Source of the DNA: Dehalococcoidia bacterium
GTDB taxonomy: Bacteria > Chloroflexota > Dehalococcoidia > Lucifugimonadales > UBA3495
Direction: 5' to 3'
DNA: 64,000 nucleotides
NCBI GenBank assembly: GCA_034423195.1
Contig: DAOUIZ010000034.1
Coordinates: 2,023 to 66,022, forward strand
Shown: positions 16,723 to 60,334 of the stretch, piece by piece
Layout: each line of letters begins with the position of its first letter
Position numbering within the stretch: position 1 is the stretch's first letter
The notes under the pieces: model-generated
What the model was told of the DNA's origin: nothing
What the model saw: only the letters and a program-made list of their open reading frames with translations
Databases searched by the model: none
Made by a program: the position numbers and the translations under genes

Positions 16723-16764
16723 CCAGTGTGCGCTTCACGCCGGTGCGCGGAACTTTCCCGCGCT

Positions 16765-16851
16765 TGGTGCCGAGGGCGGGACTTGAACCCACACGGGCTT
16801 TCGCCCACGGCCCCCTCAAGACCGCGTGTCTACCAATTCCACCACCTCGGC
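16765..16851 (-). tRNA. tRNA-Leu (GAG), long variable arm, CCA encoded
   Basis: Acceptor GCCGAGG/CCTCGGC, anticodon stem CGGTC/GGCCG with loop TTGAGGG, long variable arm, T-loop TTCAAGT. Confidence 0.9.
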
Positions 16852-21589: not shown

Positions 21590-21608
21590 CCTGATACCGG
21601 GTATCAGG
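21590..21608. promoter_or_regulatory. Perfect 19-nt palindrome CCTGATAC-CGG-GTATCAGG in the leader of the giant gene
   Basis: Read directly. About 80 nt upstream of ATG 21688 and downstream of the TACAAT boxes. Confidence 0.5.
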
Positions 21609-21687
21609 TGATGGCTGGTTGCGATACCGGCCCCGGCCGCCGCCGGCTGCCCGGATGCGCCGGCAACCCCCCCGCGAGGTCTCCAGA

Positions 21688-41785: not shown

Positions 41786-42050
41786 CGTCCTATTGGCCTA
41801 CCAACTTTGAAATAAGGGTACAGGGACTTGAGCTTGATGTGGGCGTCATGGGTGGTGAAACGCCAGTCTGTCGGCTTCTACATCGTACATCCATCATTTC
41901 GAGTGTGGTAGGCCGCTAGCTGCGCGACGTTTCTATCCAGGTGGACGCGCCATTGGACACAGGACTGTGGATTTACCAGGATGGGCGGGAGCGTGGTGGC
42001 TGGAGAAAGTGTTTGCGCCAGCGCCTTGGTGGAATTGCGTTGCCTGCATT

Positions 42051-42069
42051 TATGTGGTAAAAGTACATA
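42051..42069. promoter_or_regulatory. Palindromic TATGT-N9-ACATA element abutting the padR start (possible PadR operator)
   Basis: Read directly. The known PadR operators I recall are ATGT-N8-ACAT, so the spacing here is off by one. Confidence 0.3.
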
Positions 42070-42070
42070 T

Positions 42071-42514
42071 ATGGAGCCACAAGACCCTTGGGCCGGGCAC
42101 CGGCTGCCGAAGAATTTTATGACTCCGTGGATCCTGCTGGTGCTGAAGCAGTGGAGCGTCCACGGGTACGTCATCATGCAGCAGCTGAACCGGATGGGGT
42201 TCCCTGAAGTGGACCATCCGACGCTTTACCGGGAGCTCCGACGGCTGGAGCGGGAGGGGCATGTATCCTCGGAGTGGCAGACGGACGGGAGCGGCCCGGC
42301 CAAGCGGGTATACAGCATCACCGAAGCGGGGGAGGAGCTGCTGAAGGGATGGAGTGAGGTGGTGTCGGGGTATCAGAGGATGATCAACGGGTTTTTTGAT
42401 TTGTACTCCCAGTTTTTTGGCTTTCCCGCCGAGGCGGCGCATTCCGGGGACGAGGATTCCCCGGGAGATGGCGGTGATTCGGCGAAGGAAGGAAGCCCGG
42501 ACAGTGTCCAATAG
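42071..42514 (+). CDS. PadR family transcriptional regulator
   Basis: ILLVLKQWSVHGYVIMQQL...TLYRELRRLEREGHVSSEW...KRVYSITEAG winged-helix pattern. Start moved to ATG 42071. Confidence 0.8.
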   Translation: MEPQDPWAGHRLPKNFMTPWILLVLKQWSVHGYVIMQQLNRMGFPEVDHPTLYRELRRLEREGHVSSEWQTDGSGPAKRVYSITEAGEELLKGWSEVVSGYQRMINGFFDLYSQFFGFPAEAAHSGDEDSPGDGGDSAKEGSPDSVQ

Positions 42515-42533
42515 TAACGGAGGAAAAGGAACC

Positions 42534-43046
42534 ATGGCGGACAAGATGAACGAGGCATCCCAGGCGGTGTTCAAGGCGCAGAACGAGTTGGCCGGGAAGG
42601 GATTTTCGGCGGCCGCAGCGGGCTTTGATCAGATGACCGGGATGGTCAAGAGCGGGGCCGAGGCTTCCCAGGTTGAAGCCCGGGAGGCCCGGCAGGCCTG
42701 GGATGGGATGATGTTGTATGCCCAGACCCGCAACGGCAAGGTATTGGAGTTGGCCAGGGAAATGACTGCTGTTCCGGCGTCCGGCGGTGCCCGGGTGAAA
42801 CCGGAAGTACGCGAGTTGGTCCGGGAAATCATGGATGGTGACGCCGGGTTTTACGGGGCCTGCGCCGAGTACGTGACGGGAGTGGAACAGCGTCGGGTGG
42901 AGCTCGTGGCCGGAATGCTCAGAACAAACACCGCCCTGATGGAGTCGGGACAGGAAGTGGTGAAGAGCGCCTTTGACTACGGGCAGGCGTTGATGGGGTG
43001 GTCGGCGGCGATGGTCAAGGGGACTCCGGCCCCAGAGCAGGAGTAG
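42534..43046 (+). CDS. Phasin-like hypothetical protein (helical, Ala/Glu/Gln-rich)
   Basis: GGAGGA RBS upstream of ATG 42534. All-helical composition. Position between padR and phaC. Confidence 0.45.
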   Translation: MADKMNEASQAVFKAQNELAGKGFSAAAAGFDQMTGMVKSGAEASQVEAREARQAWDGMMLYAQTRNGKVLELAREMTAVPASGGARVKPEVRELVREIMDGDAGFYGACAEYVTGVEQRRVELVAGMLRTNTALMESGQEVVKSAFDYGQALMGWSAAMVKGTPAPEQE

Positions 43047-43139
43047 CGGGGATCGTCATTCTCCGGTTCTCCAACCCACCGGGGTAGGGATTTCTGCGGC
43101 TATTTCCGGTTCCCGACAGAGGGGCGAGGAGGCGTTGCC

Positions 43140-44228
43140 TTGGTTGATTCAACAGAGTTTGCGGCTCAATTCCAAGAAGACCTGAAGAAGAACATGGAGC
43201 GGGTCCAGACCCTGTTCGACTCCTTCGTCACCAACCCGAGCGACCCTCCGGTGGGGGCCACTCCGTCGCAAGTCATCTGGAAGCGGGGCAAGACCAGGCT
43301 GCTCAGGTATGCGCCGGGGCGGCACAAGACCAATCCCCTGCCCTATTTCATCGTTCCCTGGCTGGGGATAAGCCGTCCCTACGTTTTGGACCTTTTGCCC
43401 GGGAACAGCATGATCGAGTACCTGGTGAACCAGGGACACGACGTTTACCTGCTGGACTGGGGAGAGATCGCCGAGGAAGACAAGGAACTGGGGTTCGAGG
43501 AAGCCGTCTTCAACATTATTCCGAGGGCTCTCGAGCAGATCCTGGAAACCTCGGGAGCGCGGGAGATTACATTGAACGGGCTGTGCCTGGGCGGAACGCT
43601 GGGTGCTTGCTACCTGGCCCTGAATCCGGATGCCCCGGTGCGGAATTTCGTGGCAGTGGTTGCTCCGATTGATTTTGACCAGGGCGGCATGTTCCGGGTG
43701 TGGCTGGACCAGCGGTACTTTCCCGCGGACCTGATCGTGGAGCGGTACGGCGGGCTGCCGGCCAGCCTGATGGGCACCGGCTTCAAGATGCTGCGGCCGA
43801 CGCTGGAAGCGCAAGCCATGGCTGGCCTTTGGGCCAATGCCCATCGTCCGGGGTATATTGAAAGCTACAAGGCGATGAACCGCTGGGCCAACGACTTTAT
43901 CGGGATGCCGGGGCAGTTCTTCAGGGAGCTGGCAAAGGACCTGTACGGCAGCAACCGGCTGGTGCGGGGAGAGTTCGTTCTGAACGGCCAGGCGGTTGAC
44001 CTGAAGCGCATCGTCCAGCCCCTGCTTGTGGCCGCCGCCAGCCAGGACTACATCGTTCCGTCGCCAGCGGCGGAGGGACTGATGAACGCCGTGGGCAGCG
44101 CGGATAAGGAGTTTGTGGAACTGCCGGGAGGGCATATCTCGGTGTTTTCCGGGCGGCAAGCCCACCAAACCCTGTGGCCCAAGATAAATGAGTGGGTGCT
44201 GGCCCATTCTGCGGCACCGGCCGACTGA
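43140..44228 (+). CDS. phaC: Class III poly(3-hydroxyalkanoate) synthase catalytic subunit PhaC
   Basis: About 360 aa alpha/beta hydrolase with lipase-like box GLCLGG (Cys nucleophile). Followed by a phaE-like gene. Confidence 0.85.
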   Translation: MVDSTEFAAQFQEDLKKNMERVQTLFDSFVTNPSDPPVGATPSQVIWKRGKTRLLRYAPGRHKTNPLPYFIVPWLGISRPYVLDLLPGNSMIEYLVNQGHDVYLLDWGEIAEEDKELGFEEAVFNIIPRALEQILETSGAREITLNGLCLGGTLGACYLALNPDAPVRNFVAVVAPIDFDQGGMFRVWLDQRYFPADLIVERYGGLPASLMGTGFKMLRPTLEAQAMAGLWANAHRPGYIESYKAMNRWANDFIGMPGQFFRELAKDLYGSNRLVRGEFVLNGQAVDLKRIVQPLLVAAASQDYIVPSPAAEGLMNAVGSADKEFVELPGGHISVFSGRQAHQTLWPKINEWVLAHSAAPAD

Positions 44229-44285
44229 CCTTCCTCCAGCTTATGCCCATTCCCAGTTGAGTTAGTCCACAAGGGAGACTTCCCC

Positions 44286-44990
44286 ATGACTACGCGCGAA
44301 ACCGGAACCAGCGACAACAGTTCGGCGGGTGGGGGCAACGCGTCCGCCGCCTTCGATGCCTGGCAGGAGATGTTCAGGAAATCGGCGGAAGCGTGGGCGC
44401 AGGCAGCCCCGGGGTTCCCCGGATTTGCTTCCCCCGGGCCAGGGGCAACGCCCTTCGGGGGGTGGCCTTTCGCGGTTCCCCCATTCGGGAGGGGCGGCAG
44501 CACGGTGCCGGGGATGGATGGGCCGTTCCAGGGATTCAACGTGGATGGGCTGACGCGGATGTGGCAGCAGCTTTACCAAGTGTGGGCGGAGCAGGCACGG
44601 CAGATGATGGCCGACCCCACTTTCCCACAGAGCTTGTCGGAAGCTGAAAGGCAGTGGGCACAGGGGTTGGAATCGCTGGCGTCTACTTTTGCCAAGTCGA
44701 TGAGCACGGAAGAATTTTCGCAGGCGCTGGGCAAATACATGGAGCAGGCGCTGGTCTGGCAGGGAAAGCTGACCAGGGAAAGCAATCCGCAGATGGACGC
44801 CGCCCTGCGGGCATGGAACGTGCCATCGCGGGCACAGATTGACCGGTTGTTTGAACGGGTTATTGGTCTGGAGGGACAGATCGAGTCCCTGTCAGATGAG
44901 GTCCGAAAGCTCCAGGCCACTGTTGATGCCGCCACCACGGCGCGGCGGGCAACGTCCGCACCGGCCAGTCCAGCGGAACCGGGAGCCTGA
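44286..44990 (+). CDS. phaE: Class III PHA synthase subunit PhaE-like protein
   Basis: C-terminal NVPSRAQIDRLFERVIGLEGQIESLSDEVRKLQ resembles the conserved PhaE box. Immediately downstream of phaC. Confidence 0.6.
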   Translation: MTTRETGTSDNSSAGGGNASAAFDAWQEMFRKSAEAWAQAAPGFPGFASPGPGATPFGGWPFAVPPFGRGGSTVPGMDGPFQGFNVDGLTRMWQQLYQVWAEQARQMMADPTFPQSLSEAERQWAQGLESLASTFAKSMSTEEFSQALGKYMEQALVWQGKLTRESNPQMDAALRAWNVPSRAQIDRLFERVIGLEGQIESLSDEVRKLQATVDAATTARRATSAPASPAEPGA

Positions 44991-45151
44991 CCGGAAACGC
45001 AGGAGAAGCCCCCCGTTTAGAACCCGTTTCCCGCGTACCGCTCCCTGAACCGGGGGTCCCGCTCTCGGAAACCCGGGGAAGGCATCCTGTCGTGATGGTC
45101 TCCCCGGGTTCGCACGTCTGGGTTGGCGTGGCTGGGTTGGCGGAGCCGATG

Positions 45152-45240
45152 TTCACCAAACTTTCACCAAGGACTAGGCATCGCGATGCTTCAGGCAGAT
45201 ATATGATACTGCCTATGATTGGCACTTCACCTATTTTCAC
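45152..45240 (+). promoter_or_regulatory. Two pairs of phased TTCAC direct repeats flanking a 6-bp-stem palindrome upstream of amt
   Basis: TTCACCAA at 45152 and 45163 (11-nt period). TTCAC at 45226 and 45236 (10-nt period). AGGCAG-N10-CTGCCT at 45193-45214. amt ATG at 45320. Confidence 0.4.
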
Positions 45241-45319
45241 GTTGGGGTTAAACTAAGGCCGCGGGTAAACTGATGAGAAGCGGCGCCCCGGTCGACCCAG
45301 CCGGCGCCACCGGAGGTCG

Positions 45320-46546
45320 ATGGACTCAGGCGATACAGCATGGATGCTGTCATCGACAGCGTTTGTCCTCTTTATGACTCTGCCGGGGCTGGCCCTGGTA
45401 TACGGGGGGCTGGTAGCCTCCAAGTCGGTCCTTTCCGTAGTCATCCAGTGTTTCGCGATCTCCGCCTTGGCCAGTGTGATCTGGCTGTCGGTGGGGTACA
45501 GCATGGCCTTCGGAGAGAGCCTGTTCTGGTTCATAGGCACCCTGGAAAACGCCTTCTTTCTAGGGATAGCGCCGGAGACAGTCCACCCAGAAACCCCCAA
45601 CCTGCCCGAGATGGTGTTCGTCATCTTCCAGATGACCTTCGCGATGATTGCTCCGGCGATAATTTCGGGCGCCTACGCGGAGCGGATGAAGTTTCCGGTG
45701 GCGCTGGTGTTCAGCGGGTTGTGGTCGCTGCTAGTGTATATTCCCATCTGCCACTGGGTGTGGGGCGGGGGCTGGCTGGACCAGATGGGGGCGATGGACT
45801 TTGCCGGAGGCCTGGTGCTGCACGCCAACGTGGGAGCGGCGGCGCTGGTGGCGTCGATAATCGTGGGCCGTCGCCTGGGGTTTCCCAACGAGATTGCGCC
45901 GCCCCACAACCCCGGGATGACGGCAGCGGGGACAGGGATGCTGTGGGTGGGGTGGTTCGGGTTCAATGGCGGAAGCCAGTTTGCCGCCGACGGCGAGGCC
46001 GGGATGGCGATTGCCGTGACCCACATTTCCGCGTCGGCCTCTGCCCTTACCTGGATGGTGCTGGAATGGGTAACGAGGCGGTACGCATCGCTGATCGGCA
46101 CGGTGACCGGCGTAATCGCCGGGCTGGCGGCGGTTACGCCGGCGTCGGGGTACATTGGGCCGATTGGTGGACTTATCTTGGGGTCGGCGGCCAGCCTGGT
46201 CTGTTTCTTCGCCGTTGGTATAATAAAGCGCAAGCTGAACATTGACGACGCACTGGATGTTTTCGCGGTGCATGGGCTGGGAGGTATCATAGGCGTGTTG
46301 CTGGTGACTTTCCTGGCATTGCCGATCTTCGGGGGCCAGGGTTATCCGGTGGAGGGGCGGGATGTCCACGTTCAGCTGGGGGTGCAGGCCCTGGGAGTCG
46401 CAGCCTCCATGGCATGGGCTGGGCTGTTCACCTTCATCATACTGAAGGTGCTGGACCGGGTCATGGGCGGGGCCCGGGTGGATGAGGAGGACGAGCTGGT
46501 GGGACTGGACCTGGCGGCTCATGGAGAACGGGGATACGACATTTAG
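45320..46546 (+). CDS. amt: Ammonium transporter (Amt family), copy 1
   Basis: MDSGDTAWMLSSTAFVLFMTLPGLALVYGG. Twin-His pore motifs DFAGGLVLHANVG and VFAVHGLGGIIG. GGAGG RBS. Confidence 0.9.
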   Translation: MDSGDTAWMLSSTAFVLFMTLPGLALVYGGLVASKSVLSVVIQCFAISALASVIWLSVGYSMAFGESLFWFIGTLENAFFLGIAPETVHPETPNLPEMVFVIFQMTFAMIAPAIISGAYAERMKFPVALVFSGLWSLLVYIPICHWVWGGGWLDQMGAMDFAGGLVLHANVGAAALVASIIVGRRLGFPNEIAPPHNPGMTAAGTGMLWVGWFGFNGGSQFAADGEAGMAIAVTHISASASALTWMVLEWVTRRYASLIGTVTGVIAGLAAVTPASGYIGPIGGLILGSAASLVCFFAVGIIKRKLNIDDALDVFAVHGLGGIIGVLLVTFLALPIFGGQGYPVEGRDVHVQLGVQALGVAASMAWAGLFTFIILKVLDRVMGGARVDEEDELVGLDLAAHGERGYDI

Positions 46547-46564
46547 GGTAAAATTGGGCGTGGG

Positions 46565-46951
46565 ATGAATGGTCCGATTCGCGCGGTGAACACCAAACAG
46601 GAGGTCGAGCTATTGAACGTAGAGAAGTGGTGGGAACGGGGAAGTTTGGTTGTAGCCACCGAAGGGCGGGTGAACGGGCTGAATGCGGCCGAGTACCGGC
46701 GCATGCTGGACGATGCTCTGGAGGAGGACAGTTCGGCGGTAGTCCTGAACTTTGAGAGGCTTTCGTACATCAGCAGCGCGGGGCTGCGGGTGGTGCTGCA
46801 AGTGGCAAAAAGTCTGCGCCGACGCGGAGCGAAATTTGCCGCGTGCAACCTGGACGGTCCGGTGTTGGAAGTGTTCGTCACCGTTGGGTTTGACCGGATA
46901 ATCCCCCTGCACGGTTCGGTGGATTCCGCGGTGGCATCATTCTCGGAGTAG
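46565..46951 (+). CDS. STAS-domain protein (anti-sigma-factor antagonist, SpoIIAA/RsbV-like), copy 1
   Basis: LSYISSAGLRVVL phosphorylatable-serine loop. 18 nt downstream of amt. Confidence 0.8.
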   Translation: MNGPIRAVNTKQEVELLNVEKWWERGSLVVATEGRVNGLNAAEYRRMLDDALEEDSSAVVLNFERLSYISSAGLRVVLQVAKSLRRRGAKFAACNLDGPVLEVFVTVGFDRIIPLHGSVDSAVASFSE

Positions 46952-46969
46952 CCTGCTCGGAGTAACCTG
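46942..46969. repeat. Near-perfect tandem duplication, 14 nt x 2 (CTCGGAGTAGCCTG / CTCGGAGTAACCTG), spanning the STAS stop codon
   Basis: Read directly. Followed by a further TAACCTG at 46973. Confidence 0.9.
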
Positions 46970-47084
46970 GAATAACCTGCCAACGCCGGTGCTGAAACGG
47001 TTCTGGAATTAACCCGGCCGCCGCCGGTGAGCGCAGATTCAGCGACTTTCATTAATTGGATGTAACCTAAACAGGATGTAATCT

Positions 47085-48248
47085 ATGCCCGATGGATTCA
47101 AGATTCTGGTAGTAGACGACGAGCCGGACCTGGAACCGCTGGTGCTGCAGCGGATGAGGAGACATATCCGGTCGGGGAAATACTCCTTCGTATTTGCCCG
47201 CAACGGCCTGGAAGCCCTGGACCTGCTTCAAGCCGAGGATGATATCGACATGGTGGTGTCGGACATCAACATGCCGCAGATGGACGGGCTGACTCTCCTG
47301 GAGCAGATCCCCAAGGTGGACCCGAATATCCGGTCAATCATCATCTCGGCCTACGGCGATATGAAGAACATCCGGACCGCCATGAACCGGGGCGCCTTCG
47401 ACTTCGTCACCAAGCCGTTGGACTTCGAGGACCTGCAGATAACCATTGACCGCACCCTGATGCACCTGACGGAGTGGCGGGATGCACTGTCGTCCCGGGA
47501 CAAGCTGGTGGCGCTGCAGAACGAGCTGGACATCGCCCAGAAGATGCAGCAGTCCATTCTGCCGACCCAGTTTCCCAAGGGAGCGGACTACGAGGTCTAC
47601 GCCAACATGGACCCGGCCCGCAACGTGGGCGGGGACTTCTATGACGTGATCCGGCTGGACAACGACTGCTTGGGGCTGGCCATTGCCGATGTTTCGGACA
47701 AGGGCGTGCCGGCGGCGTTGTTCATGATGTCCAGCCGCACCCTCCTGAAGGGATCAGCCATCGGCACCCCGGACCCGGGAGACGTGCTGGATGAGGTGAA
47801 CACGCTGCTGTGCGAGGACAACGAAGCGGAGATGTTCGTAACCCTGTTCTATGGTGTGTACGACCCCGCAACCGGCAAGTTGACCTATTCCAACGGCGGC
47901 CACAACACTCCGGTGGTCCTGCACCCGGACGGGAGTTCGGAGCTTCTGCCTCTGACCGGCGGGATTGCGCTGGGGGTGATGCCGGGAATGCCCTACGGCA
48001 CGGAGGAGATCGCTCTCCAGCCGGGGGACGCCCTGATCCTGTATACCGACGGCATCAGCGAGGCCATGAACGAGGTTAGTGAAGAGTTTGGAATGGACCG
48101 GCTGGCCGAGGTGCTGTCCCGGACGAAGACCAGGAACGCCAAGGAACTGAACGAGGAGATTTTCGCGGGTGTCAGGGAGTTTGTTGGCGACACGCCGCAA
48201 TCGGACGACATCACCTGCCTGACGATTTGCCGGAACGGGGCTGCGTAA
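47085..48248 (+). CDS. Response-regulator receiver fused to PP2C/SpoIIE-type serine phosphatase (RsbU-like)
   Basis: REC: ILVVDDEPD..VVSDINMPQMDG..FDFVTKP. PP2C: GGDFYDV...IADVSDKGVPAALFM...LYTDGISEA...DDITCL. Confidence 0.9.
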   Translation: MPDGFKILVVDDEPDLEPLVLQRMRRHIRSGKYSFVFARNGLEALDLLQAEDDIDMVVSDINMPQMDGLTLLEQIPKVDPNIRSIIISAYGDMKNIRTAMNRGAFDFVTKPLDFEDLQITIDRTLMHLTEWRDALSSRDKLVALQNELDIAQKMQQSILPTQFPKGADYEVYANMDPARNVGGDFYDVIRLDNDCLGLAIADVSDKGVPAALFMMSSRTLLKGSAIGTPDPGDVLDEVNTLLCEDNEAEMFVTLFYGVYDPATGKLTYSNGGHNTPVVLHPDGSSELLPLTGGIALGVMPGMPYGTEEIALQPGDALILYTDGISEAMNEVSEEFGMDRLAEVLSRTKTRNAKELNEEIFAGVREFVGDTPQSDDITCLTICRNGAA

Positions 48249-48667
48249 TGAGCTCGACGCTTGCGCTGAAGGTTGAAACCAGACTGGAGGAACTGCAGCG
48301 AATTGCTGCTGCGGTCGATGAATTGGCGGAGCAGGAATCGTGGCCGCCGGGGATGGCCGCACGGGTGAACCTGGTCATCGAGGAATTCGGAATCAACGTC
48401 ATGAACTACGGGTACGATGAAGGAGTCCACACCTTCGACATCAACCTGAGTTCCGATGACGGGTTGTTGACAATAGAGATAATCGACGACGGGAAGCAGT
48501 TCAATCCCCTGGAGGATGCTCCCGAACCCGATACGGAGTCGTCGATCGAAGACCGGCCAATCGGAGGGCTGGGGCTCTTTCTCGTGCGGACGATGACGGA
48601 AGACCTGCAATACCGCTGGGAAGATTCGAAGAACCATTCCACCATGGTGATGCGGATAAGCGAATGA
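48248..48667 (+). CDS. RsbW/SpoIIAB-like serine protein kinase (HATPase_c_2, anti-sigma-type)
   Basis: N-box VIEEFGINVMNYG, G1 IIDDGKQFNP, G2 GGLGLFLVRTM. The ATG overlaps the upstream stop (TAATG). Confidence 0.75.
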   Translation: MSSTLALKVETRLEELQRIAAAVDELAEQESWPPGMAARVNLVIEEFGINVMNYGYDEGVHTFDINLSSDDGLLTIEIIDDGKQFNPLEDAPEPDTESSIEDRPIGGLGLFLVRTMTEDLQYRWEDSKNHSTMVMRISE

Positions 48668-50001
48668 TCCCTCTCCGTACCCAGTTGTTGACGGCAATGC
48701 CCATGTCGCTGGTCCTGGGTGGGGCATTTCTGATCCTGTCGACAATGTTCGGCGGCCTGGGACAATTCATCCACGAAGCAGAGTCTCCCGTCGACCTCGC
48801 CCATCCGGTGGAACTGGCACAGTTCTTGGGTCAAGAAATGACCCCAACGGAGGGAGAAGCATCGGAAACCCGGGTCGGGGATGGGTCAAGTTCAGGAGGC
48901 ACCCACGGAGTGGGAAGCGACCGGGTTGTCTTTGGGCAATCGGCGGCGTTGACGGGACCGGCGGCGGAGCTGGGAACCAACATGAAGCTGGGGATAGAGG
49001 CCGCATTCCACGAGGTTAACGAAACAGGAGGCGTTCACGGGCGTCGCCTGGAGTTGACATCCCGGGACGACGCCTATGAACCGGAGGCAGCGATAGCGAA
49101 CACCCGCTACCTGATACGAGAGGAGCGGGTGTTTGCTTTGATCGGAGCCGTGGGGACCCCCACTTCGCGCTCCGCCACGCCGGTGGCCCTGGAAGCCGAG
49201 ATCCCGTATATCGCTCCCTTCACCGGCGCGGCTTTTTTGCGGGAAACGAAGTGGAAGAATATCGTGAACCTGCGGGCGTCGTACAACCAGGAAACCGAGG
49301 AAATGGTCGCCCAGCTGCACGACGGTTTGGGCTTGAACCGGATCGCGGTCCTCTACCAGGATGACTCGTTTGGAAGGGCCGGTTTCCACGGGGCAACCCG
49401 GGCGATGAACAAGCGGGACATAGAGCCGGTTTCGGTCGGCTTGTATCCGCGCAATACCCTGGCGGTCAAGACCGCTCTGTTGGACCTGAGGAGGGGAGAT
49501 CCGGAAGCGGTGATCCTGGTGGGGGCGTACAGGCCGGTATCCGCGCTGATCCAATGGGCTCGCCGCACTGGGCTTGATCCGGTCTTCATCAACATTTCCT
49601 TCGTGGGGAGCAACGCCCTGGCTCAGGAGCTGGGTCCGGCCGGGAAGGGGATATTTGTCACGCAGGTCGTTCCGTTCCCCTGGGATACATCGGTCCCCGT
49701 GGTCCGGGAATACCACAGTGCCCTGGAAACCTACTTCCCGGGGACTGAACCGGGGTTCGTATCCCTGGAAGGCTACCTGGCCGGACGGATGGCGATCGCG
49801 GGACTGGAGGCGTGCGAGACGGAGTTAACCAGGGAATGCTTCCTCCAGGCCCTCAGGGATGCCGAAGACGTGGACCTGGGGGGCTTTGGTTTGAGCTTCG
49901 GATTTGGTGACAACCAGGGCTCGGACAAGGTGTATCTCACTGCCATAGGGAGCGACGGGCAGTATCATCCCATCGAGACGCTGCGGGACCCAGTGCCATG
50001 A
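48664..50001 (+). CDS. LivK/AmiC-type (type I periplasmic binding fold) substrate-binding protein with N-terminal membrane anchor
   Basis: VVFGQSAALTGPAAELGTNMKLGIEAAFHEVNETGGVHGRRLEL..DDAYEP pattern. ATGA overlap with the kinase gene. Confidence 0.8.
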   Translation: MIPLRTQLLTAMPMSLVLGGAFLILSTMFGGLGQFIHEAESPVDLAHPVELAQFLGQEMTPTEGEASETRVGDGSSSGGTHGVGSDRVVFGQSAALTGPAAELGTNMKLGIEAAFHEVNETGGVHGRRLELTSRDDAYEPEAAIANTRYLIREERVFALIGAVGTPTSRSATPVALEAEIPYIAPFTGAAFLRETKWKNIVNLRASYNQETEEMVAQLHDGLGLNRIAVLYQDDSFGRAGFHGATRAMNKRDIEPVSVGLYPRNTLAVKTALLDLRRGDPEAVILVGAYRPVSALIQWARRTGLDPVFINISFVGSNALAQELGPAGKGIFVTQVVPFPWDTSVPVVREYHSALETYFPGTEPGFVSLEGYLAGRMAIAGLEACETELTRECFLQALRDAEDVDLGGFGLSFGFGDNQGSDKVYLTAIGSDGQYHPIETLRDPVP

Positions 50002-52445
50002 ACAGTGAAAACGATTTTCCGGGCAGCAAGTTGCTCAACCGGCTTCGCGGGCGCCTGAACAACTGGCGCCTCCAGGGCCGGGAACGGTACCGCCAGTGGC
50101 TGGAACAGGATCAACAACAACCCGCCACCGTGGAGACGGCTGTGTATGAGGATTTGCCGGAGAGTCTGGGAAGTCCTGAGCAGGGAGTACGGGAACACGC
50201 CGCACGGCTGACCGCGGAGCAGAGATCCGCCCAGGCGGCCGTCCTGGACGACCGAAGTCTGCTGCAACGGGTCCTGCACGCCAGGTTCCGGCTTTCCACC
50301 CAATTCTACATGGGTATCGGAGTGGCGGCCCTGCTGACCCTGGCCGCCAGTCTCGTTGGTTGGTTTTCCTTCGACCGGATGGGCCAAGCCCAGGACAGGG
50401 TGAACGAAAAGCACATTCCCGAAATGGCCGCCGCGTTCGAAATTGCCGAATACAGCAGTGCGCTGGTGGCGGCGGGGCCGCGCATGGCCACCGCCGAAAC
50501 GCCGGAAGATGTGGAGGTGATATACGACGGGATAGTGGCGTCACAGGGGGAGATCCAAAGCCAGTTGAACCTCCTGGGCGTGACGGATGTCGAAGATGAA
50601 CGCTTCCAGACGATCCTTGAACGCTCGGGGAATCTGATCAGCAACATGCAGGTGATTCGTACCCACAAGTTCGAACTGTTCCGGCAAGCGGAGGCCAGGG
50701 AGTCGCTGTCGGCTGACCTGGCGGAGATACGGGGCCGCCTGGATAACACGCTGGTGCCGGCTATCGACGAGCAGCTTTTCTATACCATTACGGGTTACCG
50801 GGACCTGGAGGCTGCACCAAGTGATTTCACGGCGCATTTTTCTGAGGATGAGTTGAGCCGCTACCGCTACCTGACGGAACTCCAGGCCGACGCCAACATC
50901 GCCACCGAGTTGCTGGCCAATGCCTTTACGGTGTCCGACCCGTCCTTCCTGGAACCCCTCCGTGAGCGGTTTGAAACGACCATCAACCGCATTGAACGCA
51001 ACTTGGGAGCCCTGGAAGGGTCGCCGGTCCATGAGGAGCTGGCGCCGGTGTTTGCCGATTTGGGCCGGTTCAGCCTGGGTGCGAGCAGCGAATTCAACCT
51101 GCTGGAGAGAGAGCTGCGCCTGGAGGAAGACCTGCGGGACGTTCTGTCGGAAAATCAGAGCGAAGCCGTCGCGCTGATCCAGGAAGTGGATAGCCTAGTT
51201 GTTGACGCAATGGACAGCGCCCAATCCGCAACAGTCGAATCCAGCATCGTCATACTGGAAGGCCGGACCCTTTTGCTGGCTATTACGGGCATCAGCATTG
51301 GAGGCGCGTTTCTGGTGGCCTGGCTCCTGGTGGGCAGGGTGCTGCTGAGGCGAATCCAGATGCTGTCGGACTGGATGCGCCGGATGGCGGGGGGAGAGCT
51401 GGACTCTCGGGTCGAGATTGGAGGCAATGACGAGGTTACCGACATGGCGGCAGCCCTGGAGGTCTTCCGGCGTCACGCGCTGGAGGTGCAGCGGCTCAAC
51501 CTTGTGGAGAGCCTGGCGGAAGAACTGCAGGGGAAGAACGACGAGCTTGAGTCGGTGCTCCATGACCTGCGGCGTGCCCAGGACCAGGTGGTGATGCAGC
51601 AAAAACTGGCCGCGCTGGGCGAGCTCACCGCCGGGGTGGCGCACGAGATCCGCAATCCGCTGAACTTCGTGAAGAACTTCTCCGAGTCATCCCAGGAGCT
51701 GCTGGATGAGCTGAGGGACGCGCTCAAGGAGTCGGCTGACGAACTCGACGACGAACAGCAGTCACTGATCAATGATATTACTGATGACCTGGACTCGAAC
51801 TTCGAGCGCATCCTGTCTCACGGGGAGCGGGCGAACCGGATCGTCACCGATATGCTGATGATGAGCCGGGGGGAGGCGGAATTCCGCAGCACCGCCATCA
51901 ACACCCTGTTGGATGAGCACGCCAGGCTGGCCTTCCACAGCGCCCGGGCGACGGACCCGAATTTCCAGCTTGACCTGAGGGATGACTTTGACGCCGAGGC
52001 CGGGGATATCCAGGCGATACCCCAGGACCTGGGCCGGGTCTTCCTGAACATGGTGACCAACGCCTGTTACGCCACGAACAAGAAGCGACTGGAACTGGAG
52101 GAGGCCGGAGAGACTTACTACCCGGCTCTGACGCTCGGCACCAAGCGGCAGGGGGACCGGGTCCTGGTCAGCATTCGGGACAATGGGCCCGGAATACCGG
52201 AGGAAGTGGTGGAGAAGATGTTCCTCCCCTTCTTCACGACCAAGCCGACGGACGAGGGAACGGGACTGGGCCTGGCGATTTCCAGCGACATCATCCGGGA
52301 GCACGGCGGCTTCATACAGGTAAACACCGAGCTCGGGGAATACACGGAGATGCTCATCGACCTCCCCGTGGAACCGGCCGCGGCCAGGCTGGAAGCGGAT
52401 GGGGATGGGGCCACCGTGGCGGTTTCGGAACCGGTGTCCGACTAA
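49998..52445 (+). CDS. Membrane sensor histidine kinase: 2 TM helices, about 300-aa extracytoplasmic domain, HAMP, coiled coil, HisKA, HATPase
   Basis: TM helices near aa 105 and 435. HAMP around MRRMAGGELDSRVEIGGNDEVTDMAAALEVF. H-box AHEIRNPLNF, N-box NMVTNACYAT, G1 RDNGPGI, G2 GTGLGLAIS. ATGA overlap with the binding-protein gene. Confidence 0.9.
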   Translation: MNSENDFPGSKLLNRLRGRLNNWRLQGRERYRQWLEQDQQQPATVETAVYEDLPESLGSPEQGVREHAARLTAEQRSAQAAVLDDRSLLQRVLHARFRLSTQFYMGIGVAALLTLAASLVGWFSFDRMGQAQDRVNEKHIPEMAAAFEIAEYSSALVAAGPRMATAETPEDVEVIYDGIVASQGEIQSQLNLLGVTDVEDERFQTILERSGNLISNMQVIRTHKFELFRQAEARESLSADLAEIRGRLDNTLVPAIDEQLFYTITGYRDLEAAPSDFTAHFSEDELSRYRYLTELQADANIATELLANAFTVSDPSFLEPLRERFETTINRIERNLGALEGSPVHEELAPVFADLGRFSLGASSEFNLLERELRLEEDLRDVLSENQSEAVALIQEVDSLVVDAMDSAQSATVESSIVILEGRTLLLAITGISIGGAFLVAWLLVGRVLLRRIQMLSDWMRRMAGGELDSRVEIGGNDEVTDMAAALEVFRRHALEVQRLNLVESLAEELQGKNDELESVLHDLRRAQDQVVMQQKLAALGELTAGVAHEIRNPLNFVKNFSESSQELLDELRDALKESADELDDEQQSLINDITDDLDSNFERILSHGERANRIVTDMLMMSRGEAEFRSTAINTLLDEHARLAFHSARATDPNFQLDLRDDFDAEAGDIQAIPQDLGRVFLNMVTNACYATNKKRLELEEAGETYYPALTLGTKRQGDRVLVSIRDNGPGIPEEVVEKMFLPFFTTKPTDEGTGLGLAISSDIIREHGGFIQVNTELGEYTEMLIDLPVEPAAARLEADGDGATVAVSEPVSD

Positions 52446-52553: not shown

Positions 52554-53492
52554 CTAGACGGGATATTCGAAGTAGGCGCTGGTGATGTGGAAGTGGAGGT
52601 CGCGACAACCCCGGTTTATCTGTTCGAGCAGTTCGTCCCGGTCGTCCCGGTCGGGCCATTCGTAATGGACCAGGGAAGCCAGTCGCCCGGCCAGCCGCCG
52701 GATGGCCTCCCCCTGCCTCGGGATGGGGCCGGTGCCGATGCGGGCAATCTGCTCTGCAATACCGTCGAGGGACCGTCCTACGGAGGATGGCAGGCTCGGG
52801 TCGGTAACGAGGAGGTCCAGGGCGTTCCCCGGCAGGACCTCGCCCCCATAACGGCGGTTGTGGGCTTCAAAGGCGTGACATAAATGCAGTAGGGTGGCCC
52901 AGTCCGCCCCGTCATTCATGGGGTCCGCGGAAATCTGGTTGAGCAGCAGCGCCGCCCATATCTGGGAGCGCTCGATGTAGCGGCCCAGCTGCATGAAGTT
53001 CCACCCATCGTCCCGGTACATGGTGGATACCGCCACGCCTACAAAAGTGTGTATCTCCGCTGCGGTCTCCTGGAAGAAACTTTCCGGGGACGTCTGCCAG
53101 ATGTCGAGGATGCCTATCTGGCGCATACGCAGGTAGGCCAGGTTCAGGCGGGTCCACATCTCGCCGCTGATGCAGTGGCGCATCTGGCGGGCATTTTCCC
53201 GGCCCTGGGAGAAGCAGCTCCATATCGAGTCGGGATTGGACAGATCGAAGGTGAGGTCGTCGGTCAGGGTGTAGGAATCGGCCAGAATGTAGTTATCCTC
53301 GCCGAACTCGAGGCTCCCGTGGGGAGGTTCCCGGTCCATGCTGCCGTAGATCCGGCTCCAGCCGAAGTAGATATCGCGGGCGGGCCGGTCCACCAGGGCT
53401 TCGACCTGGAACCGCAGCAAGTGGCACAGCAACTCGGCCCGCTCGAGGTAGCGGCCCATCCAGTACAGACCCTGGGCGCTTCTGGAGAGCAT
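52554..53492 (-). CDS. Alpha-E domain protein (DUF403)
   Basis: MLSRSAQGLYWMGRYLERAE is the hallmark N-terminus. About 310 aa, helical. Confidence 0.85.
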   Translation of the reverse strand: MLSRSAQGLYWMGRYLERAELLCHLLRFQVEALVDRPARDIYFGWSRIYGSMDREPPHGSLEFGEDNYILADSYTLTDDLTFDLSNPDSIWSCFSQGRENARQMRHCISGEMWTRLNLAYLRMRQIGILDIWQTSPESFFQETAAEIHTFVGVAVSTMYRDDGWNFMQLGRYIERSQIWAALLLNQISADPMNDGADWATLLHLCHAFEAHNRRYGGEVLPGNALDLLVTDPSLPSSVGRSLDGIAEQIARIGTGPIPRQGEAIRRLAGRLASLVHYEWPDRDDRDELLEQINRGCRDLHFHITSAYFEYPV

Positions 53493-53497
53493 GGAGG

Positions 53498-54928
53498 TCA
53501 GCCTTCCTCGTACTGTTCCGGCATCAGGACGAATTCGGGGTAGGCCTCGATGCCGAGTTCACCGGCGTCCTGCCCGAGATGTTCAACAACCGTGGAGACC
53601 CGGGCTCCGAGGGTCAGGTCAAAGCCCTTCCACAGGGCAAAGGAAACGGTGAAGGTGAAGGCCCCCACGGCACCGATTCCGGCCAGCTGCGCCACGATGT
53701 CGCCGCCCGCGACGATGCAAACGGCGAGGGTTCCCCAGATTCCGGCGAAGAGATGGGCGGGAATGGCTCCGACGACGTCGTCGATCTTCAGCACTTCGAG
53801 GAGCTTGATGCCGCCGGTGCAGACAACGCCGCCGATGGCCCCGATGATGATCGCCCAGTAGTGTTCGGTGATGTCGGGCCCGGCGGTTATGGAGACCAGT
53901 CCGGCGATGGCTCCGTTGAGCACGGCGATGAGGTCAATGCGGCCGAAGACCATGCGGGACAGGACCAGCGCGGCGATCACCCCGGCCGCCGCCGCCAGGT
54001 TGGTGTTGACCAGGACATTGGCCATGGCCACCACGTCCACGGCGCTCCCCAGGGCAAGCTGGGAACCGCCGTTGAACCCGAACCAGCCGAACCAGAGGAT
54101 GAATACTCCCAGGGTGACGGCGACCACGTTGGACGGCGTGGTAGGATTGGCGCCCCCGTCCCGGCGGAACTTTCCGAGGCGGGGCCCGACAATGATGGCG
54201 CCGGCCAGCGCGGCCCACCCCCCGGTGCTGTGTACGATGGTGGAGCCGGCGAAGTCCTGGAATCCCATCTTGTCCAGCCACCCGCCTCCCCAGGTCCAGG
54301 CGCCCACGACAGGGTAGATGAAGGCGGTCAGGAGGAGGGTAAAGAGGAAGAAGGGCCACATTTTGACCCGCTCGGCGAGGGTGCCGGACACGATGGAGGC
54401 GGTGGTGGCGACGAACACCATCTGGAAGAACCAGTCCGACATGGTGGAGTATCCGGACTCCAGCACTGTGCCAAGTCCGCTGGCGTCCCCATCGAGAAGG
54501 GCGAGTTCTTCGGGAGAGGAGCCGTAGAAGAAACGGAAGGACCCGATAATGCCCTGCACATCGACGTACATCAGGTTGTAGCCGATGATGAAGTAGGCCA
54601 GACCGGCGATGGAGTAGAGGCCGATGTTCTTGAGGCAGATCATGGAGGCGTTCTTGGTGCGGACTGAACCGGACTCCAGCATGGTGAACCCGGCGCACAT
54701 CCACATGACCATTGCGCCCCAAAGAAGGAACGAGAATGTGTTGAAGACGAAGCGAAGCTCCTCGTCGCTGGATGCGAAGGCCACGCCGGAGTGGCCGAAG
54801 AAGACTCCGACGGGCACCACTGCGGCGGCGAGGAGGAGAAGCCTGGCCCGTCGGGGCGCCAGCGCCAACCGGGTGAAAACCCCAAACGCGCGATGACTGT
54901 TCACGTTTATGCCCGGGGAATGCAGCAT
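53498..54928 (-). CDS. amt: Ammonium transporter (Amt family), copy 2, with N-terminal signal-peptide-like extension
   Basis: AGFTMLESGSVRTKN, DFAGSTIVHSTGGWAAL, AIPAHLFAGIWG. 5-nt gaps to both flanking genes. Confidence 0.9.
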   Translation of the reverse strand: MLHSPGINVNSHRAFGVFTRLALAPRRARLLLLAAAVVPVGVFFGHSGVAFASSDEELRFVFNTFSFLLWGAMVMWMCAGFTMLESGSVRTKNASMICLKNIGLYSIAGLAYFIIGYNLMYVDVQGIIGSFRFFYGSSPEELALLDGDASGLGTVLESGYSTMSDWFFQMVFVATTASIVSGTLAERVKMWPFFLFTLLLTAFIYPVVGAWTWGGGWLDKMGFQDFAGSTIVHSTGGWAALAGAIIVGPRLGKFRRDGGANPTTPSNVVAVTLGVFILWFGWFGFNGGSQLALGSAVDVVAMANVLVNTNLAAAAGVIAALVLSRMVFGRIDLIAVLNGAIAGLVSITAGPDITEHYWAIIIGAIGGVVCTGGIKLLEVLKIDDVVGAIPAHLFAGIWGTLAVCIVAGGDIVAQLAGIGAVGAFTFTVSFALWKGFDLTLGARVSTVVEHLGQDAGELGIEAYPEFVLMPEQYEEG

Positions 54929-54933
54929 ATCGG

Positions 54934-56367
54934 TCAGTCCTCCAGCACCCAGAAATCCTTGCCGCCGCCCCCTTGGCTGGAGTTGACGACCAGGCTGCCC
55001 CGTCGGAGCGCCACCCGGCAGAAGGCCCCCGGGACGATGCGGGTGCGCTGTCCCTGGAGAACGAAGGGGCGCAGGTCGACGTGGCGGGGCTCAAAGCGGC
55101 CCTCGATGAGACAAGGGGCCCGGGAGAGGGCCAGAACGGGCTGGGAGATGAAGTCGGCCGGGTCGGAGCGGATCTCCCTCGCGTAGTCTTCGCGCTCCCC
55201 GGCGGTTGAATGGGGGCCGATAAGCATCCCGTAACCCCCGGAGCCTCCGACGCGCTTGACGACCAGGTCCTGGAGATTGTCCAGGGTGTACTCAAGGCCC
55301 TCGGGCCGGCGGCAGAGGTGGGTCTCCACGTTGGAGAGGAGGGGTTCCTCGTTCAGGTAGTAGCGCACCATGTCGGGGACGAAGGCATAGACGCTTTTAT
55401 CATCGGCCACCCCGGTCCCGGGGGCGTTGGCCAGGGTGACGTTGCCGAGCTGGCAACAGCGGAGGAGCCCGGGGACGCCCAGCAGGGAGTCGGGCCGGAA
55501 GACCGTGGGGTCCAGGAAATCGTCGTCCACCCGGCGGTATATCAGGTCGACGCGCTTGAGTCCGTCGGTGGTGCGCATGAAGACGAAATCATCCCGGACC
55601 TGGAGGTCCTGTCCCTCCACCAATTCCGCTCCAAGTTCGTGGGCCAGGAAGACGTGCTCGTAGAAGGCGGAGTTGTAAACGCCGGGAGTGAGCAATGCGA
55701 TGGAGGGGTTGGACATTTCCCGGGGGGCCAGTTCCAAGAGGGTGTCGCGGAGTTCCTGTCCATAGTGCTCGACCTCCCGAACTCTCATGCTCCTGTACAG
55801 GCGGCGGAGACTGGCCTTGGCCGCCTTGCGGTTGGCCAGCATGTAGGACACGCCAGAGGGAACCCGGAGATTGTCCTCCAGGACGTGGAACCCGTCGTTG
55901 GTGCGTACGAGGTCGGTGCCGCAGATGGCTACCCACGTGCCGCATGGGGCCGAGAACCCCCGCATTTCCTCACGGAATTGAGGGCAGCCGTAGATGATGT
56001 CCGCCGGAATCACACCGTCGGCGAGGATGCGGGCGTCGTTGTAAATGTCCTGGAGGAAGAGGTTGAGGGCCTTCAGGCGTTGGGTGAGGCCCAGTTCCAG
56101 TTGCTTCCAATCGGATGCTGCCAGGAGCCTGGGAAGGCAGTCTATGGGGATGATCCTCTCTTCGGCTTCTTCATCGCCGTAGACCGTGAAGGTGATGCCT
56201 TCGTTGGAGAACGAGCGGTTGACCCGCTCGTGGATGCTGGTTAGCTCGGGGCCGGAGAGTTCAGAGAGGGTATCGTAGAGCTGCTGGCAATGTTCCCTGG
56301 GCGCGCCGTCCGGAAGGAACATTTCATCGTAGATTGCGGGGTCCAGCCCGTAGCCAACAAAATCCAC
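54934..56367 (-). CDS. Circularly permuted type 2 ATP-grasp protein (DUF404/DUF407 family)
   Basis: 477 aa. NAPGTGVADDKSVYAFVPDMVRYYLNEEPLLSNVETHLC and C-terminal GGGGKDFWVL match my recollection of this family. Paired with an alpha-E gene in the same operon. Confidence 0.8.
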   Translation of the reverse strand: MDFVGYGLDPAIYDEMFLPDGAPREHCQQLYDTLSELSGPELTSIHERVNRSFSNEGITFTVYGDEEAEERIIPIDCLPRLLAASDWKQLELGLTQRLKALNLFLQDIYNDARILADGVIPADIIYGCPQFREEMRGFSAPCGTWVAICGTDLVRTNDGFHVLEDNLRVPSGVSYMLANRKAAKASLRRLYRSMRVREVEHYGQELRDTLLELAPREMSNPSIALLTPGVYNSAFYEHVFLAHELGAELVEGQDLQVRDDFVFMRTTDGLKRVDLIYRRVDDDFLDPTVFRPDSLLGVPGLLRCCQLGNVTLANAPGTGVADDKSVYAFVPDMVRYYLNEEPLLSNVETHLCRRPEGLEYTLDNLQDLVVKRVGGSGGYGMLIGPHSTAGEREDYAREIRSDPADFISQPVLALSRAPCLIEGRFEPRHVDLRPFVLQGQRTRIVPGAFCRVALRRGSLVVNSSQGGGGKDFWVLED

Positions 56368-56611
56368 GGCAACAGTCCGTCAGTTTTCTCCGGTGTGACT
56401 ACCGGGGCGGGGTAACATGCTCTTTTCAGGAGGGTTTCCGAGGCTTGGTCCTCGCCCGGGATTCAGGTGCTCGTTCACCCCGGTTTCCTTCACTTGCCAG
56501 CGAGTTGCCAAGGACAGCATGGAGCGGGGCCGGAATCCGGGTCTGGTATCCCTGGCAACAGCTCCCGGGCCGGCGGCGCGGGAGGGCCGCCGGTTGCGCG
56601 ACAGGTCTGGA

Positions 56612-56950
56612 TCAACCGGAGAAGCTGGCAATGGCATCGGGCTGGGAACCCCAGACCGGGATGATCTTGTCGAACCCGCTGATTTCAAACACCTCGCGGA
56701 TGGGGTCGGAAAGGGAACAAACGGCGAGTTCGGTACTTTGACGCTGAAGGGCCTTGGTGGTCATGAGAATGACCCGGAGCCCGGCGCTGCTGATGTAAGA
56801 AAGATCCGCCAGGTCCAGTACCACGCCCCTGTCGTCGGTGCTGATAGCCTCGCTGAGGTCTCCCTGGAACTCCTGAGCGTTGGAGCCGTCGAGACGCCCC
56901 TGGGGCTTGGCGATCAGTATCCCATTTTCCCGAACGATTCCTAGTTCCAT
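56612..56950 (-). CDS. STAS-domain protein (anti-sigma-factor antagonist-like), copy 2
   Basis: LSYISSAGLRVILM loop identical in core to copy 1. Start moved to ATG 56950, preceded by AAGGAG. Confidence 0.8.
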   Translation of the reverse strand: MELGIVRENGILIAKPQGRLDGSNAQEFQGDLSEAISTDDRGVVLDLADLSYISSAGLRVILMTTKALQRQSTELAVCSLSDPIREVFEISGFDKIIPVWGSQPDAIASFSG

Positions 56951-59883: not shown

Positions 59884-59972
59884 CGGAGGGAGTGGGATTC
59901 GAACCCACGATCCCGGTTTCCCAGGATAAGCGCTTAGCAGGCGCCCGCACTAGACCACTATGCGATCCCTCC
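59884..59972 (-). tRNA. tRNA-Ser (GCU), long variable arm, CCA not encoded
   Basis: Acceptor GGAGGGA/TCCCTCC, anticodon loop CTGCTAA, T-arm GTGGG-TTCGAAT-CCCAC, discriminator G. Confidence 0.9.
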
Positions 59973-60258
59973 AAGGCTCGGGAGCCCAATATATCAGAAC
60001 CGCCTCAACCCGACAATAAACCAAAGCCCTAATCCACCGAAAAGATGTCTGTGGAGGCGGGCTGGGACGACAACAGTGCTTCCGGCTTCGGGGATGACGG
60101 TCTTTGAAACAGAATGCCGACTCGGAACGAGGGGCGCCCAAGAGATGCTACCGCACGAGAAGCCTGACCGTATCCATGGCGCCTTCAACGGCCGCAGGTC
60201 ATTAATCAGATACGGGAAAACGTGCTCACCGAGGCCAACATCTGCGGATTGGTGAAGC

Positions 60259-60334
60259 TGGTGGAGATAGGGGGGCTCGAACCCCCAACCTCGGCATTGC
60301 GAACGCCGCGCTCTCCCAGTTGAGCTATATCCCC
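60259..60334 (-). tRNA. tRNA-Ala (CGC), CCA encoded
   Basis: Acceptor GGGGATA/TATCTCC with the G3:U70 identity pair, anticodon loop TTCGCAA, T-arm GGGGG-TTCGAGC-CCCCC. Confidence 0.9.

Follow-up and report, generated by a model that had tools for sequence, protein, structure and literature searches.

Classical partner switches, such as RsbK-RsbY-RsbV-RsbW-SigB of Bacillus cereus and the RsbU/V/W and SpoIIE/AA/AB systems of Bacillus subtilis, are linked to sigma factors. In prokaryotes, PII (GlnK) is regarded as the main control of ammonium channels, and in eukaryotes phosphorylation of the C-terminus takes that place; TorT-TorS and LuxP-LuxQ exemplify histidine kinases (HKs) that depend on a binding protein. 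Partner-switch-like modules with a non-sigma output have been described as well, namely HptB-HsbR-HsbA in Pseudomonas, SypE-SypA in Vibrio and HenR/All4160 in Anabaena (PMC8256260, PMC6482189, PMC13555669), and the Anabaena switch, composed of a receiver-phosphatase fusion (REC-PP2C) and a STAS protein, acts directly on an enzyme (PMC13555669). Here, we analyse a 64,000-nucleotide (nt) stretch of DNA, referred to as the window, from a Dehalococcoidia bacterium (assembly GCA_034423195.1, contig DAOUIZ010000034.1, positions 2,023 to 66,022), in which partner-switching genes lie next to ammonium channel genes. Tentatively, and with slightly less than even confidence, we read this locus as a self-contained partner-switching cassette without a sigma factor, whose STAS proteins would act on products of adjacent genes other than sigma factors and would thereby tune ammonium or nitrogen acquisition. 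The cassette resembles the Bacillus Rsb and SpoII systems in its STAS protein with a phosphorylatable Ser, its HATPase_c_2 serine kinase and its PP2C phosphatase, and it resembles B. cereus RsbY in having a receiver-fused phosphatase with a dedicated HK, which here co-occurs in 76 of 80 related loci. Unlike the Bacillus systems, it has no sigma factor in the window or recurrently in those 80 relatives, it receives its input through a binding protein, and its two STAS paralogues adjoin transport and amidoligase genes.

On the plus strand of the window, six co-directional genes follow one another, and the Pfam domains that a sequence-only reading had assigned to the six open reading frames (ORFs) are all present. 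The first, amt1 (45320–46546), encodes an AmtB-type ammonium channel of 408 residues without a signal peptide (PF00909, E 5e-107; TIGR00836, 407 bits). It is followed by a single-domain STAS gene, STAS1 (46613–46951; PF01740), a gene for a response-regulator receiver fused to a SpoIIE/PP2C serine phosphatase (REC-PP2C, 47085–48248; PF00072 and PF07228, the latter at E 2e-54), an RsbW-like HATPase_c_2 serine kinase gene starting with an ATG at 48248 (48248–48667, 139 residues; PF13581, E 1.8e-23), a gene for a membrane-anchored type I solute-binding protein (48664–50001; Peripla_BP_6, PF13458, E 5e-56) and a HAMP-HisKA-HATPase_c sensor HK gene (49998–52445; Pfam domains). A TAATG at 48246–48250 joins the phosphatase and kinase genes, and ATGA overlaps at 48664–48667 and 49998–50001 join the kinase gene to the binding-protein gene and the latter to the HK gene; on sequence grounds, this arrangement shows the phosphatase, kinase, binding-protein and HK genes to be translationally coupled. 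These junctions, like the 18 nt between the amt1 stop codon (TAG, 46544–46546) and an ATG at 46565, can be read directly from the DNA as previously stated; the idea that all junctions are tight held for the overlaps but not for the spacing of 133 nt between STAS1 and REC-PP2C. A start at ATG 46565 would give a STAS1 of 128 residues, while a TTG at 46613, preceded at a distance of 8 nt by a perfect AGGAGG (46599–46604), gives 112 residues, the standard length of the family, so that the gap between amt1 and STAS1 is probably 66 nt.

The catalytic motifs, which had been noted as intact, are also conserved in relatives. In STAS1, the second Ser of ISSAGL in the sequence LSYISSAGL aligns with Ser58 of SpoIIAA, a position at which Ser is at least 95% conserved among 80 family members; STAS1 itself forms a long branch in the STAS family tree. 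The metal-binding residues D184, D202, D322 and D374/D375 of REC-PP2C are invariant among orthologues, to which the window protein is 67–69% identical, as are the acidic pocket, Asp60 and Lys110 of its receiver domain. The G1 and G2 boxes of the RsbW-like kinase are conserved in 76 orthologues; this protein matches the RsbW equivalog weakly (26 bits) and finds no sequence match in the PDB at E 0.1 or better. The binding protein carries an N-terminal hydrophobic helix (residues 7–33). Its closest solved structure, 4kv7 (E 1e-72), is an uncharacterised LIV-type protein, and an assignment of the ligand by way of structure was therefore given up. No ABC transporter genes recur among the cassette neighbours or lie near the window binding-protein gene. 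In the HK, two transmembrane (TM) helices at approximately 102–125 and 416–451 flank an extracytoplasmic domain of about 290 residues, and its matches to TorS models are both below threshold (PF21689, 22 bits against a cut-off of 27; TIGR02956, 156 bits against a cut-off of 676); precomputed TorS-type matches are stronger in the orthologues of two related loci, designated L002 and L178.

To survey the distribution of these genes, one genome per GTDB species was scanned with an alignment of the phosphatase, yielding 80 loci in which genes were mapped by tblastn. The six genes had been taken as one unit; the genes are real, but what is conserved is a unit of five, comprising STAS, REC-PP2C, the RsbW-like kinase, the solute-binding protein and the HAMP kinase, with amt as a facultative companion. 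REC-PP2C, the binding protein and the HK are present in 76 of the 80 loci, the RsbW-like kinase in 73 and STAS in 70. Identity of REC-PP2C to the window protein is 61–75% across the 80 loci, and nearly all cross-lineage pairs, drawn from 14 class- or phylum-level lineages, are 60–75% identical. The record labels of the carriers span at least nine phyla and include Dehalococcoidia and other Chloroflexota, Acidimicrobiia, Rhodothermales, Latescibacterota, Spirochaetia, Gemmatimonadota, Acidobacteriota, Alphaproteobacteria and Opitutales; bin, family and record names suggest that many of them are sponge symbionts (see also PMC11706023). Overlaps of 4 nt between start and stop codons, including the ATGA between the binding-protein and HK genes, recur in distant phyla, and the proposed chain from binding protein to HK to REC-PP2C to STAS fits this conserved gene order. 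A separate observation concerns the REC-PP2C proteins of L046 and L052, which are 97% identical although their records are labelled Latescibacterota and Gemmatimonadota, respectively; from the sequences, this would reflect either a very recent transfer or an error of binning or labelling. Two further contexts were considered and set aside: a role in defence was dropped as PADLOC returned no match for the cassette, and carriage on plasmids found no support, the best plasmid matches (Parabacteroides, Runella) being just 44–49% identical and lying in unrelated contexts that contain no STAS, RsbW or binding-protein gene.

Neither PII nor a sigma factor was found in the window, as had been claimed: tblastn with GlnK, SigB and RpoE gave no PII, SigB-type or RpoE-type match in the 64 kilobases (kb), and Pfam scans of the main window ORFs detected no PII and no Sigma70 family. 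Likewise, no SigB-type match was obtained in any of the 80 loci, and no sigma gene recurs within 10 kb of the cassette; the only sigma-like match is an RpoE-like one in L052, approximately 4 kb upstream of STAS. That the cassette is so well conserved across phyla with no sigma gene recurring alongside speaks for a target that either travels with it or is universal.

An Amt gene lies within 10 kb of the cassette in 25 of the 80 loci, against roughly 1–2% expected from our own gene-density estimate; within the same distance, CP_ATPgrasp or Alpha-E genes are found in 18 loci and a gene combining Na_H_Exchanger and CBS domains (Na/H-CBS) in three, with one further, degraded copy. In a Pfam census of the closest flanking genes, Ammonium_transp heads the upstream list (8/77), and CP_ATPgrasp is the commonest family directly downstream of the cassette (13/75). 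The pairing of amt with partner-switching genes might have been peculiar to this genome; instead, amt stands immediately upstream of STAS and co-directional with it in 12 of the 80 loci, and the amt1 genes concerned belong to an exclusive clade, described below. Relatives of Amt1 precede STAS in L010, L015, L017, L018, L022 and L027, and relatives of Amt2, the second channel of the window, do so in L042 and L044 or follow the HK gene in L008, L054 and L084. In L049, L068 and L074, STAS is split from the phosphatase gene; it immediately follows amt or amt-glnK there, in convergent orientation to the cassette.

Additional STAS loci were gathered by sampling from the STAS side. Here, STAS genes without a cassette were found beside Na/H-CBS (L003/L004, L175/L176), beside CP-ATP-grasp/Alpha-E/TGase genes (L179) and beside Amt1 (L090), and only one sampled STAS gene, that of L007, has no Amt, Na/H-CBS or ATP-grasp neighbour. 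The Na/H-CBS transporter is a protein of 553 residues with 59–74% identity across taxa (L003, L052, L173, L175), degraded in L046 (8746–9876), and its gene lies between STAS and REC-PP2C in some loci and beside a cassette-less STAS in others. All-against-all clustering of ORFs together with the Pfam censuses returned only Amt, CP_ATPgrasp, Alpha-E, TGase, Na/H-CBS, DUF502 and SRAP as recurrent neighbours. The last two may reflect shared synteny rather than function: in 9 of 75 loci, a DUF502 membrane-protein gene lies downstream of the kinase gene and is convergent to it (at approximately 15.0–16.0 kb in L035, L057, L069, L075, L077, L079 and L080, among others, and at 13660–14397 in L177), and an SRAP peptidase gene is found in 5 of 75.

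We then considered the ammonium channels. Amt1 matches the E. coli AmtB structures (E 6e-91), has equivalents of AmtB F107, W148, D160, H168, F215, S219 and H318, and shares the twin-His motif, the Phe gate and the C-terminal region. Scanning metagenome contigs independently with an Amt1 alignment and taking the 80 nearest relatives, we found glnK adjacent to 42 of them (approximately 53%), well short of the near-universal linkage of amt to glnK assumed in the sequence-only reading, and STAS downstream of just one, L090, which is also the closest (67% identity). In a neighbour-joining tree of 117 Amt sequences with 40 bootstrap replicates, the 11 STAS-linked Amt1 proteins, L090 among them, form an exclusive clade (40/40 bootstraps) in which STAS follows in 11 of 11 cases, and another comprises the 19 Amt2 proteins associated with either the cassette or the ATP-grasp operon (40/40). 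The suggestion that STAS occupies exactly the slot of glnK did not hold, as three members of the Amt1 clade (L014, L068 and L074) show the order amt-glnK-STAS. The protein between amt and STAS is a canonical GlnK with R47 and Y51 in the alphaproteobacterial L068 and L074; in L014 (9015–9335) it is PII-like but divergent, with 29% identity to GlnK of E. coli (PF00543, 37 bits) and an altered T-loop. Because these three clade members retain glnK between amt and STAS, STAS is an add-on in such lineages and not simply a replacement for GlnK. Control through C-terminal phosphorylation of the eukaryotic kind was also tried as an explanation and rejected; the position corresponding to T460 of plant AMT1 is Ala in Amt1 and Gly in Amt2.

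A second operon, overlooked in the sequence-only reading, occupies 52554–56950 on the minus strand, tail to tail with the HK gene. It begins with a second STAS gene, STAS2 (56612–56950), identified by tblastn and ORF reading, whose product of 112 residues (TIGR00377, 80 bits) is nearer the family consensus than STAS1; a protein identical to STAS2 (P0028) occurs on 31 public contigs with the same neighbourhood. At a distance of 244 nt follow CP_ATPgrasp_2, encoding a circularly permuted ATP-grasp amidoligase (54934–56367; PF14403, E 1e-153), then amt2 (53498–54928), encoding an ammonium channel of 476 residues of the 'marine subtype' (PF00909, E 6e-96; TIGR03644, 512 bits against a cut-off of 514), and finally a gene for an Alpha-E domain protein that begins 5 nt past the amt2 stop codon (52554–53492; PF04168, E 3e-64). 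The second channel gene is thus embedded between CP_ATPgrasp and Alpha-E with a 5-nt gap on each side, and 11 other loci of several phyla show the same placement; no earlier description of an amidoligase operon of the ATP-grasp type that carries its own channel for ammonium seems to exist. TGase, which follows CP_ATPgrasp/Alpha-E in several relatives, is absent from the window by tblastn, and no proteasome-family match appeared in Pfam scans of the main window ORFs. In Pseudomonas putida, nitrogen starvation induces the CP-ATP-grasp/Alpha-E/TGase operon (PMC5666114, PMC6376114), a published link that agrees with the association with Amt, and in marine metagenomes the domains of this operon co-vary with those of urea metabolism (PMC3597751).

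The mechanism that we tentatively propose would run as follows. The membrane-anchored binding protein would report an extracytoplasmic ligand, probably a nitrogen compound, to the weakly TorS-like HAMP HK, which would phosphorylate or otherwise control the sole receiver domain of the cassette, that of REC-PP2C. The RsbW-like kinase would add, and REC-PP2C remove, a phosphate on the conserved Ser of both STAS1 and STAS2. The STAS proteins would be the diffusible output, acting post-translationally on non-sigma targets encoded beside their genes, which in the window would be Amt1 for STAS1 and the CP-ATP-grasp/Amt2/Alpha-E operon for STAS2, and the physiological role would be to tune the acquisition of ammonium or nitrogen. 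We infer the phosphotransfer from HK to REC, the STAS phosphorylation cycle, the ligand and the STAS target from the genes and their arrangement.

Direct control of Amt by STAS is plausible in this framework. A more specific version, which we regard as rather unlikely, is that one form of STAS, the non-phosphorylated or else the phosphorylated one, docks on the cytoplasmic face of a dedicated clade of AmtB channels, of the marine-subtype Amt2 and of the Na/H-CBS antiporter and gates them, providing post-translational control of ammonium uptake that is independent of PII and driven by a two-component system; if true, it would make these STAS proteins a free-standing counterpart of the STAS domain fused to SLC26/SulP transporters. 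Amt was put forward at the outset as a possible partner of STAS; the amt-STAS pairing is recurrent, but STAS also pairs with Na/H-CBS and CP-ATP-grasp/Alpha-E, and 60% of the cassettes have no known partner within 10 kb. Several observations weigh against our interpretation as a whole. In 48 of the 80 loci, amt, ATP-grasp and Na/H-CBS genes are all missing up to a distance of 10 kb from the cassette, so that the linkage is facultative and the target possibly encoded elsewhere. A docking signature on the cytoplasmic face was sought in the STAS-linked Amt1 clade and did not emerge, the clade-specific residues being just three and all located in TM helices. Furthermore, all cassette carriers are uncultured metagenome-assembled genomes (MAGs).

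These observations have to be weighed against other explanations. The components form the classical trio of STAS, HATPase_c_2 kinase and PP2C, and a majority of the cassettes stand alone, both of which would suit a conventional anti-sigma arrangement in which the RsbW-like protein sequesters a sigma factor whose gene lies elsewhere in the genome, and amt and the ATP-grasp genes are members of its regulon or co-regulated neighbours, untouched by STAS. We consider this unlikely, because the RpoE-like match of L052 has no counterpart within 10 kb of the cassette in the other loci, because 60–75% identity over at least nine labelled phyla is hard to square with a sigma partner that is lineage-specific yet never encoded nearby, and because STAS genes detached from the cassette still adjoin transporters or the ATP-grasp operon. 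An absence of any functional link, with amt and ATP-grasp genes hitch-hiking on a segment, mobile or syntenic, that related symbionts have in common, would agree with the lack of linkage in most loci, with the similar habitats and with possibly shared recent transfers such as that indicated by L046 and L052. Even so, it strikes us as very improbable, since there are at least five STAS-Amt architectures (Amt1 ahead of STAS, Amt2 ahead of STAS, Amt2 after the HK, an amt-STAS pair convergent to the cassette, and such a pair with no cassette) and since two Amt subfamilies were recruited, each as an exclusive clade.

The transporters could also be inputs rather than targets: as transceptors, Amt and Na/H-CBS would catch or release STAS or the phosphatase according to a conformation that depends on their substrate, ammonium availability and the binding-protein ligand would be integrated, and the output would lie elsewhere, for example in ATP-grasp/Alpha-E. 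The closest solved structures to Amt2 are indeed the ammonium receptors Sd-Amt1 and Ks-Amt5 (8qj3, 6eu6), receptors that join Amt to a kinase or to a cyclase have been characterised (PMC5764959, PMC11152129), and a natural Amt-HAMP-PP2C fusion exists in SAR11 (PMC11796062). Against this stands the lack of a fused cytoplasmic transducer on either channel, Amt1 (408 residues) and Amt2 (476 residues) each matching PF00909 only; moreover, Amt1 retains every pore residue and is an ordinary channel of the AmtB type. Amt2 was examined as an ammonium receptor of the N1/N2 kind and rejected, as it reads C-X6-E-X15-N-X2-L-Y in place of the signature Q-X6-E-X15-N-X2-D-[F/T] (PMC11152129) and so lacks its Q and D[F/T]. 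We therefore judge a transceptor role to be distinctly improbable, and retain the sigma-less cassette with targets encoded beside its STAS genes as our preferred, tentative reading.

Next, we inspected the non-coding sequence around these genes. Upstream of amt1, at 45151–45172 (+), lies the direct repeat GTTCACCAAAC/TTTCACCAAGG, a candidate site for a regulator of the OmpR/PhoB type as judged from its sequence. The pattern TTCACC-N5-TTCAC occurs once in the window against 0.03 occurrences expected, and the repeat is kept in L005 and L006 while its flanks vary, and is missing from more distant loci. A promoter-like block at 45226–45254 (+), consisting of TTCACC, a 17-nt spacer and TAAACT, lies approximately 66 nt upstream of the amt1 ATG in a stretch that is fully conserved in L005 and L006; a consensus scan did not call this block. 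From amt1 to the HK gene, the consensus scan returned no convincing terminator, terminator-like sites being no commoner than in shuffled sequence. Immediately before the REC-PP2C start (47055–47084), a tandem duplication of approximately 16 nt, AAACAGGATGTAATCT, distinguishes the window from L005, L170 and L171 and doubles the ribosome-binding region of the gene. In the other operon, between STAS2 and CP_ATPgrasp, the minus strand carries TGGCAACTCGCTGGCA (56495–56510), a sigma-54-like -24/-12 element of the form TGGCAA-N5-TGGCA, of which GG and GC are retained in L171 and GC is lost in L170; the window holds no enhancer-binding protein to go with it.

The remainder of the window was also annotated. 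Directly upstream of amt1, a cluster at 41912–44990 encodes a PadR regulator, a protein of 216 residues without a Pfam match, a class-III-like PhaC (PHA synthase) and a protein of 234 residues, again without a Pfam match; the cluster is syntenic in L005 and L006. A protein of 1455 residues (21595–25962, +) contains several fibronectin type III and DUF11 domains, repeats of a eukaryote-like type that has been reported from sponge symbionts. The window further contains four CoA-transferase III genes (one of them double-domain, 825 residues) and encodes three luciferase-like monooxygenases along with a Fic and a PaREP1 protein. Five tRNA genes lie at 14411–14482, 16649–16851 and 59884–60334, and an Rfam search of the window returned nothing besides these five tRNAs and no other known RNA element.

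If correct, our reading would add a third mode of control for ammonium channels, a partner-switch STAS protein driven by a two-component sensor, and would assign a function to one of the many sigma-less partner-switching modules. Identity of 60–75% across at least nine labelled phyla of marine MAGs points to gene sharing and to an important role where a host supplies nitrogen waste. Our reading would also tie the long-unexplained CP-ATP-grasp/Alpha-E operon to a sensory input and an ammonium channel, making its function easier to probe. Full-text literature searches returned no description of a partner switch linked to an ammonium transporter, in agreement with the initial impression that the system is undescribed, and the papers on Amt receptors make no mention of STAS or PP2C partners.

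Compared with the described systems, the locus combines familiar parts in an unfamiliar way. In HptB-HsbR-HsbA, SypE-SypA and HenR/All4160, as proposed here, a receiver-controlled PP2C sets the phosphorylation of a STAS protein with a non-sigma output; none of the three, however, is tied to ammonium channels, Na/H-CBS or CP-ATP-grasp as the window cassette is, and in the window the kinase, phosphatase, binding protein and HK are encoded by four separate, translationally coupled genes. With AmtB-GlnK, the locus shares a small soluble signalling protein encoded straight after amt, whose activity would be set by covalent modification, but STAS is unrelated to PII, its proposed modification is Ser phosphorylation rather than uridylylation or effector binding, and three relatives carry both proteins. 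The sensor Amts, namely Ks-Amt5, Sd-Amt1 and the SAR11 fusion, are similarly tied to cytoplasmic signalling (PMC5764959, PMC11152129, PMC11796062), and the phosphatase of the SAR11 Amt-HAMP-PP2C fusion belongs to the same superfamily as the window REC-PP2C (PMC11796062), whereas the window Amts are stand-alone proteins without the N1/N2 signature, so that any coupling would be in trans.

On the sensory side, the pairing of a binding-protein gene with an HK that has a large, putatively helical periplasmic sensor domain, weakly matching that of TorS, is shared with TorT-TorS and LuxP-LuxQ; here, in contrast, a LivK/AmiC-type protein (Peripla_BP_6) serves as binding protein, the partner of the HK is a phosphatase and not a DNA-binding regulator, and the HK, unlike TorS, has no receiver or HPt domain. 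Like the Anbu-type CP-ATP-grasp/Alpha-E/TGase operon (PMC5666114, PMC6376114), the minus-strand operon unites CP_ATPgrasp_2 and Alpha-E, but it has neither the Anbu protease nor TGase, an ammonium channel gene is inserted and a STAS gene precedes it. All components of the locus are thus of known kinds, and the novelty lies in a partner switch that lacks a sigma factor, is driven by a binding protein and is linked to ammonium channels, a cation antiporter and the CP-ATP-grasp operon.

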